From an uncultured Gammaproteobacteria bacterium (GTDB taxonomy: Bacteria; Myxococcota_A; UBA9160; SMWR01), in contig CAXMSF010000090.1 in NCBI GenBank assembly GCA_964196055.1, positions 1 to 54,285 on the forward strand: 54,285 nucleotides of DNA. The letters run 5' to 3'. The notes below the pieces were generated by a model. It saw only the letters and a program-made list of their open reading frames with translations. It was not told the DNA's origin and searched no databases. This document shows, piece by piece, positions 1-43,779 of the stretch; position 1 is the first letter of the stretch, and the number at the start of each line of letters is the position of its first letter. The translations under genes and the position numbers were made by a program.

Positions 1-25
1 GAACGCGTTTCAGCGCACTCAACAC

Positions 26-99
26 CCCGCGGCCGGAGTCGGGGAGGGGTCGAAGCGACTGTGTTCGAGCGGAGATCCCTCCCCGACTCCGGCCGCGGG
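26..99. repeat. Perfect 23-bp inverted repeat (hairpin), part of a hairpin-rich intergenic element
   Basis: cccgcggccggagtcggggaggg (26-48) is the exact reverse complement of ccctccccgactccggccgcggg (77-99). Confidence 0.85.
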
Positions 100-187
100 C
101 GCGCGAGCACCGATCGCGCAAGAGAGGCCCTCTCTGGCGAGTGTGCCGACACGGCCGAGCGAATCGGAAGGCAGACGCGCTCCTAGC

Positions 188-258
188 GCGTTCTGGCCGC
201 AGCGCGGTCAGAACTTCTGCGTCGTCGCGCAAAACGCGCATAGCGCGTTTCGCGCTCC
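188..258 (+). repeat. Dispersed ~71-bp repeat, copy A
   Basis: Aligns without gaps to the reverse complement of 1340-1410 (55/71 identical by hand count); contains hairpin aaacgcgc-ata-gcgcgttt. Confidence 0.75.
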
Positions 259-881
259 TAGATCTCCTCGCCGGTTTCGGTGTATGCGGCTAGCACCTTG
301 TCGGCGTAGTCGTGGGGGATGGGTCGGCCGTTGCGTATCCGGCGCGATACATTGCCGGGTCCGGCGTTGTATGCCGCCAGAGCGGTTCGCACGTTCGCGT
401 AGCGCTCGATCAGCTCTTCGAGATAACGGACACCGAGACGCACGTTGATCACCGGGTCGAACAAGCTCTCGCGTCCACGCCACGGAACATCGATTCGACC
501 TGCGAGGAATTCACCGGTCGCGGGCATGATCTGCATCAGGCCCATTGCGCCCGCATCCGAAACCGCGTCCCGCCGGCCGCTGCTTTCGACCTCGATCACC
601 GCGAGCACGAAGGTCGGCGATAAGCCGGCCCGATGTGCCTCGCTCACGATTACGCGCGCGAGGTGCGCCGCCTCTGCGGGCAAGAGCCGAGGGTCGCGAT
701 CGGAGAAGACACGCGCGATCCCATCGATCTCGCTGCGGAGTGTCTCGGGCGTCGCCGCGAAATCTACTGCCTCGCTCCGCGTAGAAATGGTCTCGACATC
801 AGTCGCGGGTGTGATGGCGCAGGAAACCGTGGACAGAATCAACGTGATCAAACATGCTGAGATTCGATCGGTCGGTCGCAT
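258..881 (-). CDS. Lytic transglycosylase, SLT domain (possible lipoprotein)
   Basis: Motifs VIEVESSG (catalytic Glu), GAMGLMQIMP and AAYNAG; N-terminal hydrophobic stretch ending TVSC. Confidence 0.92.
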   Translation of the reverse strand: MRPTDRISACLITLILSTVSCAITPATDVETISTRSEAVDFAATPETLRSEIDGIARVFSDRDPRLLPAEAAHLARVIVSEAHRAGLSPTFVLAVIEVESSGRRDAVSDAGAMGLMQIMPATGEFLAGRIDVPWRGRESLFDPVINVRLGVRYLEELIERYANVRTALAAYNAGPGNVSRRIRNGRPIPHDYADKVLAAYTETGEEI

Positions 882-886
882 CTATG

Positions 887-986
887 AACCCCTTTCGGCA
901 GCCGTTCGACCCCCTCGGTGCAACCAAGGCCGGGCACTGGCTTTGCGTCCCCGGTTTCCACCGGGTTTGCTCTTGTCGTAGGGCGT
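887..986 (-). ncRNA. GEMM-I (c-di-GMP-I class) riboswitch aptamer, A20 variant (candidate c-AMP-GMP sensor)
   Basis: Minus strand reads CGACAAGAGCAAACCCGGU-GGAA-ACCGGGGACGCAAAGCC...GGCUGCCGAAAG. It has the GCAAAC/GACGCAAAGC core, a P2 with GNRA loop, a P3 stem (CCUUGGU/ACCGAGG) and the 3' GCCGA, and lies directly 5' of the SLT start codon. Confidence 0.88.
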
Positions 987-1339
987 GCGGAACCTCGCGA
1001 TCCACACCACCATCGCTCTAAGTGTGGCATATTCCCCTCGCTTTGTCGCCCCACCGCTCAGCACCACTCGCTCCGGCCGGGAGACAACATCTCGAATGTG
1101 CAACGGACACCCGTAAGCATCCAGAATTCAGCCTGCATCGTCGCTGAAAGAGTCGGGGCGGTATCGCTGCTTTCCGGAGTTCCACCTCGAGCGCCACCGC
1201 GACGCCAAAGAACCGGAGCCCGAGAAAGTAGGTCGCAACGACCGTTGCAGCTCCGAGCAAGAGCAGAATCCAGACATCGATTCGCTCGAACAGGAGCGGA
1301 TCGACGCGTCCGAGTAGCGGCCAGAACAGCAAGGCGCTG

Positions 1340-1410
1340 GGAGTACGAAACGCGCTTTGCGCGAATTGTGCGACGCCGCGGAAGCTTTGGCCGCGGAACG
1401 ACCAAAACGC
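1340..1410 (-). repeat. Dispersed ~71-bp repeat, copy B (inverted relative to A)
   Basis: Reverse complement gcgttttggtcgttccgcggccaaagcttccgcggcgtcgcacaattcgcgcaaagcgcgtttcgtactcc matches 188-258. Confidence 0.75.
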
Positions 1411-1671
1411 AGATGCTCCAGCCGAAGAACGGCGTCCAGATTGCCTACCCACCATCCGAGTAGTCGATGAATTGGGCAAAGGCGAGTGACTTCGGAAAGT
1501 GTACGAGGGGTTAGAGGATCAGACGCATGTGATAGTAAGCGTCATTGCCCAAGAAGAGCGTGCGTCCTGCGACCAGGATTTCTTGTGCGAGTAGCCGACC
1601 AGGCCCCCGGCCCCAACTCCTACGAATGACCCTGGAAGCAGGCCGCGGGGAGTGGCACAATCATCTCCGAC

Positions 1672-1980
1672 ATGAGGCCAGAGAACCGACAACAGCCGGG
1701 TCCGACCCCTCGCCGTTTCGCCTTCGGTGTGGCCGCAGTGTGCGCGATCGCGTGGCTGCCGGGCATATCGCAGGCAGCAGGTCAGCTCGCAGAATCCGGC
1801 GGCCGCCTGGCCTATGTCGACCCGGGCTCGGGGAGCTTCATCCTCCAGGCGTTGATCGCAACCCTCGCCGGAGCGGCCGTAGCGATCAATGCGTACTGGG
1901 CGAAGATCAAGCGCGTCCTTGGCCGCGGAACTCCCGAAGAAGACGATGAAGTGAAGGGCAATACGCACAGCGATGACTGA
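1672..1980 (+). CDS. Small membrane protein with YVDPGSGS motif
   Basis: Signal-like N-terminus, AYVDPGSGSFILQ, a TM helix, basic WAKIKR and an acidic tail; overlaps the next gene's start. Confidence 0.7.
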   Translation: MRPENRQQPGPTPRRFAFGVAAVCAIAWLPGISQAAGQLAESGGRLAYVDPGSGSFILQALIATLAGAAVAINAYWAKIKRVLGRGTPEEDDEVKGNTHSDD

Positions 1981-3373
1981 CGCGGCACTCGGCGCGTCCT
2001 TTCGCGATCCCAGCGGTTTCGTATTCGAGCACGACGGAGCCGTCTACCGCCAGGTCAACCGGATCTACGCGGAAGACTACGACCACCTGATGGACTCGGG
2101 CCTCTACGCCGCACTCGTTGAAGCCGGGATGCTGGTCGCCCACGAGGAAGTCGCGTCGCCACTCTCCCGCGCGAGCGATGACGGCGCTCACTACAAGACC
2201 CTCGAGCCCGAACAGATCGGCTTCGTCTCCTATCCCTTCGAATGGTGCTTCTCGCAGCTGAAGGACGCCGCCCTGACGACACTCCGAATCGCGCAGACTG
2301 CGCTTCGTTACGGCATGGTTCTCAAGGACGCGAGTGCGTACAACGTCCAATTCCTCCGCGGTCAGCCTGTATTCATCGATACATTGTCGTTCGAGCGATA
2401 CAAAGAGGGCACGCCGTGGGTCGCGTATCGACAGTTCTGTCAACATTTTCTCGCGCCACTCGCACTCGCGGCCCATCGCGACGTGCGGCTGCTCCAGCTC
2501 TTCCGCGTCCATATCGATGGCGTCCCACTCGATCTCGCGCGCAGCCTGCTTCCCACTCGTGCCTGGTTGAACCCACATCTACTGCTCCACATCCGAGTCC
2601 ACGCGAACTACCAGCGCCGCTACGAAGGCGATACCGACAGCGCCTCGAAGGTGCGCCCGATGAGCAAACAAGCGTTACAGAACCTCATCACGGCGCTCGT
2701 CTCTGCGACGAAGAAGCTGCACTGGAAGGCAGAGGGCACGGAGTGGGCCGAGTATTACCATGGTGACAGTTACAACCAACGCGCCACGGATCACAAACGC
2801 CGAGTGGTCGGCGAGTTCATCGACGCGATCGCCCCCTCGGAACTCTGGGATCTGGGTGCGAATACCGGAGAATACAGCCGGATCGCCTCGGAACGCGGCA
2901 TCGAGACCAAGGCCTTCGATGTCGACCCGGCGTGCGTCGACCGCGGCTACGCCGCCGTCAGAAAGAGCGGCGAGACCCGGCTACTCCCGCTGCTCCTCGA
3001 CCTCACCAACCCGAGTCCGTCGATCGGCTGGGCGCTGGGTGAGCGGAATTCGATCGTCGAACGAAGCACCGCGGATGCCGTGATGGCTCTCGCCTTGATC
3101 CACCACATCGCGATCTCTAATAACGTCCCGCTGCGCCGGATCGCCGAATTCTTTGCGCGCCTCGCCGAGCACCTGATCATCGAATTCGTTCCGAAATCCG
3201 ATGCGAAGGTCGCGATCCTGCTCAGCACACGCGAGGACATCTTCCCGGATTACACGGAAAGTGGCTTCGAGACCGCTTTCGGAGGGGTCTACACGATCGA
3301 GTCGCGGATCGCCGTAGAGGGATCCGAGCGGACGCTCTATCGCATGCGACGCCGCGCTATTTCGACTGCTTGA
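1973..3373 (+). CDS. NoeA-like class I SAM-dependent methyltransferase with N-terminal kinase-like region
   Basis: N-terminal SFRDPSGFVF and SYPFEW; C-terminal SAM motif WDLGANTGEYS and ALALIHH. Confidence 0.85.
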   Translation: MTDAALGASFRDPSGFVFEHDGAVYRQVNRIYAEDYDHLMDSGLYAALVEAGMLVAHEEVASPLSRASDDGAHYKTLEPEQIGFVSYPFEWCFSQLKDAALTTLRIAQTALRYGMVLKDASAYNVQFLRGQPVFIDTLSFERYKEGTPWVAYRQFCQHFLAPLALAAHRDVRLLQLFRVHIDGVPLDLARSLLPTRAWLNPHLLLHIRVHANYQRRYEGDTDSASKVRPMSKQALQNLITALVSATKKLHWKAEGTEWAEYYHGDSYNQRATDHKRRVVGEFIDAIAPSELWDLGANTGEYSRIASERGIETKAFDVDPACVDRGYAAVRKSGETRLLPLLLDLTNPSPSIGWALGERNSIVERSTADAVMALALIHHIAISNNVPLRRIAEFFARLAEHLIIEFVPKSDAKVAILLSTREDIFPDYTESGFETAFGGVYTIESRIAVEGSERTLYRMRRRAISTA

Positions 3374-42171: not shown

Positions 42172-43779
42172 ATGGCAGAATTTCCCAGTCCGGGCCGTCG
42201 GCAACCGATCAACAGCCTGGCTACCAAGATCATCCTGTTCGTCTTCGTCTCGACCTTCGCGACGGCGTTGGTGGTGAGCTGGGTCTCCATCCAGAGCACG
42301 CACGGCTACCTGAGCAGCCGACTCGACCGCCAATTTCCAGCCTCACTCTCGCGCTCGCGTGACGAAATCTCCGCATGGTTCGTGCAGAACCTCGGCGAGC
42401 TTCGCGACCTGGCCGAGCACGCCGATGACCCGAGTCCGAAGCGGCTCGCCCAAGTCCTCGCAAAGTCGGAGCTGATCGACGGAATCGCCCTCTACGGACC
42501 CGATGGGCGGTCCCGTCGCGCGGTCGGCCGCGACGCGTGGAGTCAACTCGAGAATTCCAGGCCGCACTTCGGTTCCACGCGCCAGGGAATCCACACCGCC
42601 ATGACCCCAGCCGGAGAACTCCTGGCCTACATCGTGTTGCCCCATCCGTCGAGCGGAAATCGTCTGATCGCGATGTTGAACGGCGCCACGATCGAGGCTG
42701 CGATCACGCCACCCCGCTCGGAGATGTCGGAATCGACGCTGATCGTTGACGACCGCGGTCGCATCCTCTTCGGCGCTTCCGGTCGCTCCGCGAATTCCCG
42801 CAGCATTCCCGACGACCTGCTCGATGAACCCGATTCGAAGATCCGCGAATACACCAATGCCGCCGGTGTTCACGTCGTCGCGAGCGCACTCCCACTCGGG
42901 CTCGCCAATTGGCACCTCGTCGCGGAGGCCCCCTTCGAGGTCGTCTTTGCGCCGGTCGTTTCGGTCGTAAAGCGGATCTTCGTGATCGACCTCTGCGTCA
43001 TCCTGCTGTTCAGCTTCCTCGCGTACAAGATCACGGCCGCAATCCTCAAACCGATCGAGACGCTATCGAACGGAGCGCGCCAGATCGCCCAGGGACAGCT
43101 CGACCACGAAATCCCCGAGCCCGCAACCCACGACGAGATCGGCCTGCTCACGCACACGTTCAACGACATGATGCGAAAGCTGCGCGGAAACCAGGGCGAG
43201 ATCGAAATCGCGAATGCGAAGCTGCGCGACCAGAATCTCGAGCTCCAACAGGCCAACGAGGTACTCGAACAGCTCTCGATCACCGACGGCCTGACGAAGC
43301 TCCACAACCATCGCTTCTTCCAGGACCACCTCACGCGCGAGATCAAGCGAGTGAACCGAGTGAAGGAGCCCTTGTCCATGATCCTGGTCGACGTCGACGA
43401 CTTCAAGTCGCTGAACGACCGCCTCGGCCACGCGGCGGGCGACGAGCTTCTGCGGCGCATCGCGATGCTGATGAACGATACGATCCGCGAGAGCGACCTG
43501 CTCGCTCGCTACGGCGGCGACGAGTTCGTGGTACTGGCCTCGGATACCGACATTGCGGGCGCGGCGCAGCTGGCGGAGAAGGTGCGCACCGCCATCGCCG
43601 AGTCCTCGTTCATCGTCGACGAATCGCTGCGGCCGACTCGCACCACCCTCTCGATGGGTATCGCGCAGTATGCCGGCACCCGCAAACGCTTCTTCGCTGC
43701 CGCAGACTCGGCTCTGTACCGCGCCAAGGCCCAGGGCAAGAACTGCGTCGCGCTGGACGACGAAGACGAAGTGATCTGA
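42172..43779 (+). CDS. Membrane sensor diguanylate cyclase (TM-Cache-like-TM-HAMP-GGDEF)
   Basis: DEIGLL HAMP, TDGLT, DVDDFKSLNDRLGHAAGD, RESD I-site and RYGGDEF. Confidence 0.95.
   Translation: MAEFPSPGRRQPINSLATKIILFVFVSTFATALVVSWVSIQSTHGYLSSRLDRQFPASLSRSRDEISAWFVQNLGELRDLAEHADDPSPKRLAQVLAKSELIDGIALYGPDGRSRRAVGRDAWSQLENSRPHFGSTRQGIHTAMTPAGELLAYIVLPHPSSGNRLIAMLNGATIEAAITPPRSEMSESTLIVDDRGRILFGASGRSANSRSIPDDLLDEPDSKIREYTNAAGVHVVASALPLGLANWHLVAEAPFEVVFAPVVSVVKRIFVIDLCVILLFSFLAYKITAAILKPIETLSNGARQIAQGQLDHEIPEPATHDEIGLLTHTFNDMMRKLRGNQGEIEIANAKLRDQNLELQQANEVLEQLSITDGLTKLHNHRFFQDHLTREIKRVNRVKEPLSMILVDVDDFKSLNDRLGHAAGDELLRRIAMLMNDTIRESDLLARYGGDEFVVLASDTDIAGAAQLAEKVRTAIAESSFIVDESLRPTRTTLSMGIAQYAGTRKRFFAAADSALYRAKAQGKNCVALDDEDEVI

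Follow-up and report, generated by a model that had tools for sequence, protein, structure and literature searches.

The question raised by this locus is whether a lytic transglycosylase gene close to the end of a contig from an uncultured bacterium is governed by a riboswitch and, if so, which second messenger is read and in which direction. The window, that is, the whole stretch of DNA analysed (54,285 nt; contig CAXMSF010000090.1 of assembly GCA_964196055.1), comes from a metagenome-assembled genome (MAG) of 419 contigs that is 89% complete. A first-pass annotation, made from the letters alone, had placed on its minus strand a complete GEMM-I aptamer, a riboswitch class for cyclic di-GMP (c-di-GMP), with A at the specificity position that is G20 in the Vc2 aptamer of Vibrio cholerae (plus-strand T971), with the C92 equivalent kept in GCCGA and with a lytic transglycosylase gene downstream. 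Each of these has held up. The Rfam model RF01051 (c-di-GMP-I) matches positions 894-981 of the minus strand at 55.5 bits (E 3.4e-08), where the cut-off is 35, the match being full-length (model positions 1-87 of 87) and the only one above the gathering score in the whole window. Model position 11, the consensus unpaired G directly 5' of the paired GC in GCAAA, is aligned to the A that reads T971 on the plus strand; C92 corresponds to c898; and the open reading frame (ORF) at 258-881, for which the aptamer forms the 5' leader in sense orientation on the same strand, matches Pfam SLT (PF01464) with 100.4 bits against 21.3 (E 5.9e-29).

Model position 11 is taken here to be G20 of Vc2, and a944 to be the equivalent of A47, both by counting along the Vc2 sequence. 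The role of position 20 is as described in PMC6140456, and in Vc2 the ligand's G-beta base is paired to C92 (PMC6140456, PMC5888326). The Rfam E-value places the aptamer beyond chance, and so does the same leader's recurrence ahead of the orthologous gene, seen in 14 of the 61 related genomes. All of the sequence-level marks of GEMM-Ib, the group that responds to cGAMP (3',3'-cyclic GMP-AMP), were found: A at the Vc2 G20 position, a retained C92 and, in the same genome, a predicted cGAMP-type cyclase. Judged on its sequence, window 894-981 belongs to the GEMM-I riboswitch aptamers and is an A20 (GEMM-Ib-like) member. The coordinates of the locus, including the Shine-Dalgarno sequence (SD), are collected in Table 1.

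Table 1. Features of the riboswitch and its gene, in window positions; alignment A1 comprises the A20 leaders described in the text.
Feature	Positions	Strand	Detail or basis
GEMM-I (c-di-GMP-I, RF01051) aptamer, A20 variant	894-981	-	Rfam score; P2 and P3 pairs counted in alignment A1
P1 5' strand (anti-SD)	977-984	-	G984 C983 C982 C981 U980, A979 unpaired, C978 G977
Specificity nucleotide, Vc2 G20 equivalent, here A	971	-	Rfam alignment; invariant A in the 14 SLT-linked copies (61 relatives)
A47 equivalent (presumed), first A of GACGCAAAG	944	-	Rfam alignment; invariant in alignment A1
C92 equivalent	898	-	Within GCCGAA (899-894), gCC of the Rfam consensus
P1 3' strand	888-897	-	C897 G896, AAA bulge 895-893, G892-G889, U888; contains the SD AGGGG
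ATG of the SLT gene	879-881	-	U and G paired to A986 and C987 as well in the minimum-energy fold
207-aa secreted SLT-domain lytic transglycosylase, accessory paralogue	258-881	-	Pfam, motifs, tree

GEMM-I matches were found by Rfam at 42 places in 26 of the 61 related genomes. Position 20 is A at 14 of these, G at 24 and unclear at four (L025 and L283, where the motif was not found; L012, a GGCAUA variant that is probably G; and L026, where the coordinates were misread). The A20 copies occur one per genome (G000, which is the MAG of the window, G002, G004, G009, G014, G019, G021, G023, G027, G029, G033, G034, G040 and G051) and cover three families of the order (f1, f5 and f8). A gene for a protein of about 200 amino acids lies 3' of all 14, recognized as SLT by Pfam in 13; in the fourteenth (L030) the ORF leaves the contig after 64 amino acids. 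No SLT was found by motif scan in any of the 28 non-A loci of the same 61 genomes. A G20 GEMM-I is also present in 7 of the 14 A20 genomes, and G040 has both A20 and G20 aptamers on this scaffold; where G20 copies share the pocket and the platform in which the SD lies within P1, the genes behind them are pilin-like ones and others.

When public genomes were scanned with a pattern for the scaffold's 3' half, at least 120 stretches matched; pooled with the loci above, the matches listed amount to 72 distinct leaders of GEMM-I-like type, of which 26 have A and 46 have G. Within this set SLT stands behind 18 of the 26 A leaders by motif and behind one more (L024) by Pfam, while six are short or cut off (five with SLT-like N-termini by eye, and L207 without an ORF) and one stands before a gene for a pilin-like protein that bears an N-terminal methylation motif. 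This pilin-linked A20 aptamer (L155) is on the same scaffold, in a MAG labelled Deltaproteobacteria. SLT was found behind none of the 46 G leaders among the matches listed, 13 of which have interpretable ORFs and 33 of which are short, truncated or ORF-less. Of 401 genomes drawn from the whole phylum, 10 also contain the exact A20 pattern, and a control pattern gave no matches; all ten belong to the window's own class, with further copies in family f10. SLT follows three of the new loci, and one, from another order, has a subtilase behind it. The subtilase-linked aptamer (L262, G100:C96; Peptidase_S8), in that other order of the class, has the same scaffold.

The A20 aptamer is thus a conserved class, tied to the SLT gene. 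The public relatives are labelled Myxococcota, Myxococcales or Deltaproteobacteria bacterium, in keeping with the earlier proposal of a lineage other than Geobacter, and two with the labels Spirochaetales and Proteobacteria fall within the rest when the SLT tree is drawn. The MAG itself carries two GEMM-I aptamers, the A20 copy of the window and a G20 copy on another contig. The second (72.4 bits; G000:C371:3634-3722, or L001 1501-1589) belongs to a separate, strongly conserved class (UUCAGACAAAGGCAAA...) with a longer leader and lies about 180 nt 5' of a gene for a secreted protein.

How the aptamer might act on its gene is suggested by the position of the SD. As first annotated, AGGGG was read 7 nt 5' of the ATG: it occupies 893-889, directly 3' of the aptamer, and is followed by 7 nt and then by the ATG at 881-879. 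The proposal that CCCU of the P1 5' strand (983-980) pairs with this SD stands in substance, the pairing being conserved with compensatory changes. Two registers are possible; the one first noted is one base off that of the RNAfold minimum-energy fold and the family consensus, in which U980 pairs with G892 as a wobble, C981 with G891, C982 with G890 and C983 with G889, although it could also form. Both sources likewise give the inner P1 pairs as C978-G896 and G977-C897, and the minimum-energy fold of the window leader is the GEMM-I fold with the P1/SD helix. The family consensus leader reads GCUCCUCG, five unpaired bases and A20, and at its 3' end C92, CG, AA(A/G) and GGAGU.

Conservation of the structure was assessed on an alignment of 26 distinct A20 sequences (A1), on which the consensus structure was defined and its pairs counted against 500 shuffles. 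Standard pairs fill 97.2% of the cells, with changes on both sides at seven pairs; none of the 500 shuffles matched the observed values on any measure, and when the structure was slid by one to three columns only 19-46% of cells were paired. In the outer P1, that is, the anti-SD/SD helix (5' GCUCC, 3' GGAGU), pairing reaches 96.2%, and changes on both sides are seen at three of the five pairs, one of which occurs as UA in 22 sequences, CG in three and UG in one. The window is itself a compensated case, with CCC/GGG where most leaders have CUC/GAG. The P2 hairpin with its tetraloop is 95.5% paired with four pairs changed on both sides, and the lower and middle parts of P3 are 98-100% paired, mostly invariant and in part constant because of the search pattern.

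No terminator-like site was found in the 12 nt that separate the aptamer from the ATG; given this short spacing and the missing terminator, control must act at translation initiation. No promoter was found in a scan of window 1-2100. In the GEMM-I riboswitch class the ligand stabilises P1, so that binding should hide the SD and the switch would be an OFF switch. The mechanism proposed is that a cyclic dinucleotide binds the A20 aptamer and stabilises P1 (977-984 with 888-897), that the stabilised P1 would occlude the ribosome binding site, and that translation of the 207-aa SLT enzyme would fall.

Several observations weigh against this proposal. The fold energy of the window leader is no better than that of shuffles (z = 0.10), and among the minimum-energy folds of the 26 leaders just 8 have the SD paired to the P1 5' strand; in the remaining leaders it pairs with P3 or with early coding sequence, or stays free. 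Thermodynamic folding lends the switch weak support. P1 of the window is short, with four to five outer and two inner pairs and the additional unpaired A979, and one inner pair is broken in a genome of the same genus (G002). Furthermore, A1 was partly gathered with a 3' pattern, which makes those columns invariant by construction, and kinship among its sequences inflates the shuffle statistics.

The folds bear in particular on the alternative that the ligand does not repress translation, the leader being an ON switch or acting on mRNA stability, with the SD of the ligand-free RNA masked by other partners. The SD of many orthologous leaders does pair with P3 or with a first-codon CUCC in the minimum-energy fold, and the GEMM-Ib switches of Geobacter are ON switches (PMC6456294). 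However, these other partners of the SD are not conserved, CUCC being found only in the MTAPRR coding variant, whereas the compensatory changes fall in the P1/SD helix; moreover, the ON logic of Geobacter needs terminators, for which the 12 nt between aptamer and ATG leave no room. We therefore consider an ON switch or a stability effect improbable, and a translational OFF switch is retained in what follows.

As to the ligand, a six-frame motif scan found five intact GGDEF domains in the genome, four with Asp after GHxxG and one with Ser, and Pfam gives eight GGDEF matches, of which three are degenerate and without the GGDEF motif. The first-pass annotation had proposed a search for Hypr GGDEF enzymes, in which Ser or Thr replaces this Asp, and had held that a genome with no cGAMP synthase would speak against cGAMP; the single Ser-type enzyme supplies a candidate. 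This protein, P0001, is a Rec-GGDEF protein of 465 amino acids (G000:C92:35620-37017). Its best solved relative is 6d9m (E 3.6e-40), a T4-lysozyme fusion of the Hypr GGDEF domain of Geobacter metallireducens GacA, and GHLVGSQVL is identical in both. P0001 carries Ser at the position of GacA Ser348 (NDNYGHLVGS), its signature motif RYGGDEF is of the GGDEF and not the GGEEF type, and at the position of GacA Tyr304, located in the alignment to 6d9m by the distance between NYRY and GS (+44 residues, as from 304 to 348), it has Ala (NARY), a non-Arg residue. Ser/Thr enzymes are described as exclusively GGDE[F/Y], and Y, S, A or Q at the cross-dimer position is associated mainly with cGAMP, whereas Arg shifts the product to c-di-GMP (PMC6456294).

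A full-length orthologue of P0001 was found in 60 of the 61 relatives, and all of the 30 orthologues fetched have Ser and GGDEF, with a cross-dimer Ala in 27 and Val in three. The gene lies beside an AMP-binding enzyme and aspS, with no kinase among its neighbours, in which it resembles the orphan receiver of Myxococcus GacA (bioRxiv 10.1101/600031). From its sequence, P0001 is predicted to be a cGAMP-type cyclase and a Rec-GGDEF orthologue of Geobacter and Myxococcus GacA. Since no SMODS/CD-NTase was found in the genome, which is incomplete, this Hypr GGDEF is the only candidate source of cGAMP seen. Co-occurrence of cyclase and riboswitch was considered as evidence and rejected: with the cyclase in 60 of 61 relatives and the riboswitch in 14 of 61 there is no contrast, and the co-occurrence has no discriminating weight, a point that counts against the cGAMP proposal.

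Two HD-GYP proteins were recognized by motif in the genome (G000:C10 and G000:C61), with PPYR and SSYK at the presumed site of the guanine-reading Rxx(K/R), a placement that is uncertain; in cGAMP-specific HD-GYP proteins of the PmxA type this motif is RxxQ. A canonical, Asp-type GGDEF domain lies in the window itself at 43279-43743, inside an open frame of 570 amino acids.

The ligand is most likely cGAMP made by P0001, the genome's single Ser-type Hypr GGDEF, and the A20 aptamer may bind c-di-GMP as well. In favour of cGAMP are the A without exception in the SLT-linked copies beside the G kept in twins on the same scaffold, and the conserved, predicted cGAMP-type cyclase. Against it, natural A20 aptamers can be bispecific, and the G20A mutant of Vc2 binds c-di-GMP at 53 nM and cGAMP at 120 nM; the caution that A20 by itself does not prove selectivity for cGAMP, already voiced in the first-pass annotation, is correct on this evidence (PMC6140456). 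The switch might instead read only c-di-GMP in the cell, A20 being a change that tunes affinity, so that repression of this SLT copy would set in at a higher c-di-GMP threshold than that of the G20 riboswitches which accompany it in these genomes. Binding of c-di-GMP in A20 pockets through a protonated adenine (PMC6140456) agrees with this, as do the signs of c-di-GMP signalling in the genome, namely the four Asp-type GGDEF domains and the G20 GEMM-I, and the near-universal Hypr enzyme is uninformative on the matter. Mere tuning is harder to reconcile with an A that is invariant in 14 SLT-linked copies over at least three families (f1, f5 and f8), with more copies in f10, with the G kept in the twin aptamers, and with a conserved cGAMP-type cyclase whose predicted product the A20 pocket would bind at least as well as does Vc2 G20A. 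We regard a switch for c-di-GMP alone as unlikely, though well short of negligible.

A further alternative is that another purine dinucleotide is sensed (c-di-AMP or a linear product of the pApG type) or that the aptamer is a decaying relic. Hypr GGDEFs are able to make all three cyclic dinucleotides in vitro (PMC6456294), but C92, the guanine partner, is kept in all copies, and a relic would hardly keep an aptamer score well above the cut-off and conservation with covariation. Both versions are very improbable.

On balance, an OFF switch that answers to cGAMP in the cell is fairly probable. Its purpose would then be to adjust the cutting of peptidoglycan to the cell's cGAMP state. We infer the ligand, the direction of regulation and this purpose, and the sequence accommodates cGAMP-selective and bispecific binding alike.

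The regulated protein, an SLT-domain lytic transglycosylase of the family 1 type with the catalytic Glu-Ser motif, shows EVESSG, GLMQ and AYNAG, and its hydrophobic N-terminus ends in Cys. Among solved structures it is closest to catalytic domains of the Slt70 type, and no NCBIfam equivalog was found at or above cut-off. SLT homologues of similar size were found in 49 of the 61 relatives, and many genomes contain two such homologues. The second copy of the genome (C212:6922-7506), which is 42% identical and has no GEMM-I match nearby, belongs to a more widespread riboswitch-less group. In a quick maximum-likelihood tree, rooted at the midpoint only and with 50 rows (seven genes entered twice from overlapping loci), 21 riboswitch-less copies stand on one side (SH-aLRT 89) and the riboswitch-linked copies on the other, with two riboswitch-less genes (G043 and G013) nested among the latter; the riboswitch label needs three changes on this tree compared with 16.9 in shuffles. 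This split indicates that the A20 switch controls a distinct, accessory SLT paralogue. For the G043 gene (L293, G043:C1:2553816-2554256; a one-contig genome) no recognisable GEMM-I was found in the leader, and loss or replacement of the switch is possible. The SLT gene looks monocistronic, as a convergent gene follows it in several relatives; in the window, 257 nt of contig remain downstream of it.

At window 20-105 lies a GC-rich palindromic element of 86 nt, with arms at 26-51 and 74-99 that are 96% complementary. Copies with 96-100% identity are present on 15 or more further contigs of the genome, in many cases at their ends, and the element has the look of a high-copy repeat, similar to repetitive extragenic palindromes (REP) or miniature inverted-repeat transposable elements (MITE), that breaks the assembly. 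A segment of 74 nt just 3' of the SLT stop (188-261) has an inverted copy of 77% identity at 1337-1410, upstream of the riboswitch, so that the riboswitch-SLT unit sits between the two; elsewhere in the genome only partial copies were found. A mobile SLT cassette with long inverted repeats was considered and rejected, as there is one 74-nt match at 77% and the rest is the genome-wide palindromic repeat. Between the riboswitch and a divergent ORF for a small membrane protein (1672-1980, plus strand) about 690 nt (982-1671) have no convincing gene, the corresponding gap being about 257 nt in relative L017. The ORF of 466 amino acids at 1973-3373 gave no Pfam or NCBIfam match and is conserved beside the SLT locus in the same relative.

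In Myxococcus, signalling by Hypr GGDEF enzymes and cGAMP has GacA and GacB as writers and PmxA as eraser. In the excerpts of the literature searched, no Myxococcus reader of cGAMP is named and cGAMP riboswitches are described only for Geobacter and its relatives; supplements of the founding papers may differ. Likewise, excerpts on GEMM-I, cGAMP and Myxococcota describe no riboswitch in Myxococcota, a point on which the supplements of the papers that defined GEMM-Ib may bear, and the literature search gave no paper joining a GEMM riboswitch with a lytic transglycosylase, although the gene-association tables of those defining papers may list such cases. What is specific here is the combination of a predicted Hypr cyclase with Ser, GGDEF and Ala and a strictly gene-linked A20 aptamer in Myxococcota.

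The locus offers a compact putative reader with its output, made up of about 100 nt of RNA, an SD inside P1 and one peptidoglycan-cutting enzyme. A natural two-channel system may be tentatively envisaged, a possibility we place somewhat short of an even chance, in which cGAMP from a core GacA-type cyclase is read by the A20 aptamer, turning off the accessory periplasmic SLT enzyme, and c-di-GMP is read by the G20 twins ahead of genes for pilin-like and secreted proteins; the two channels would then be separated by one nucleotide on one scaffold. If this wider proposal is true, Myxococcota would gain their first RNA reader of cGAMP and GEMM-Ib its first translational-OFF member, and cGAMP would be linked directly to peptidoglycan cleavage, which could bear on the osmotic-stress phenotype of Myxococcus PmxA. 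An A971G change should flip the specificity of the aptamer, and paired natural A20 and G20 aptamers on one scaffold could show what besides position 20 sets selectivity and serve in the building of biosensors. If the aptamer proves only bispecific, it would be an ordinary member of the widespread A20 variant class.

Among the known systems close to the window aptamer are its G20 twins in related genomes (e.g. L016, L029, L021, L273 and L276), which share P2 and P3 (GACGCAAAGCCAG..GGGUCGAACGGYYRCCGAA) and the SD-in-P1 platform. They differ in having G at position 20 and in preceding genes for pilin-like proteins (of the N-terminal methylation motif type), subtilase-like proteins and other secreted proteins, never SLT. 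Vc2 of V. cholerae has the same fold and the same pocket positions (G20/A20, A47 and C92). The wild type, with G20, discriminates against cGAMP (10 uM), whereas the G20A mutant is bispecific, showing that an A20 pocket can take cGAMP (PMC6140456). A natural A20 GEMM-I outside Geobacter, Cbe 1-2 of Clostridium beijerinckii, is reported to bind both c-di-GMP and cGAMP (PMC6140456, citing Nelson 2015).

A further parallel is GEMM-Ib of Geobacter, for example Gs1761 upstream of pgcA (PDB 4YAZ, as named in PMC6140456), which shares with the window aptamer the RF01051 fold, A20 and C92. The genome of the window, like Geobacter, encodes a GacA-type Rec-GGDEF protein, a predicted Hypr cyclase with Ser at position 348, GGDEF and a non-Arg cross-dimer residue. 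The expression platforms differ, Geobacter GEMM-Ib being terminator-based and ON (PMC6456294), whereas in the window the SD is the P1 3' strand and the switch is predicted to be OFF. The targets differ as well: in Geobacter they are cytochromes, pili and polysaccharide genes together with an operon for a lipoprotein transpeptidase, compared with one SLT paralogue here, although that operon (GSU0181-0183) is a partial precedent for an output to the cell wall (PMC6456294). Finally, G. sulfurreducens has 13 copies of GEMM-Ib (PMC8835794), compared with one A20 copy per genome in the Myxococcota-labelled hosts of the present aptamer.

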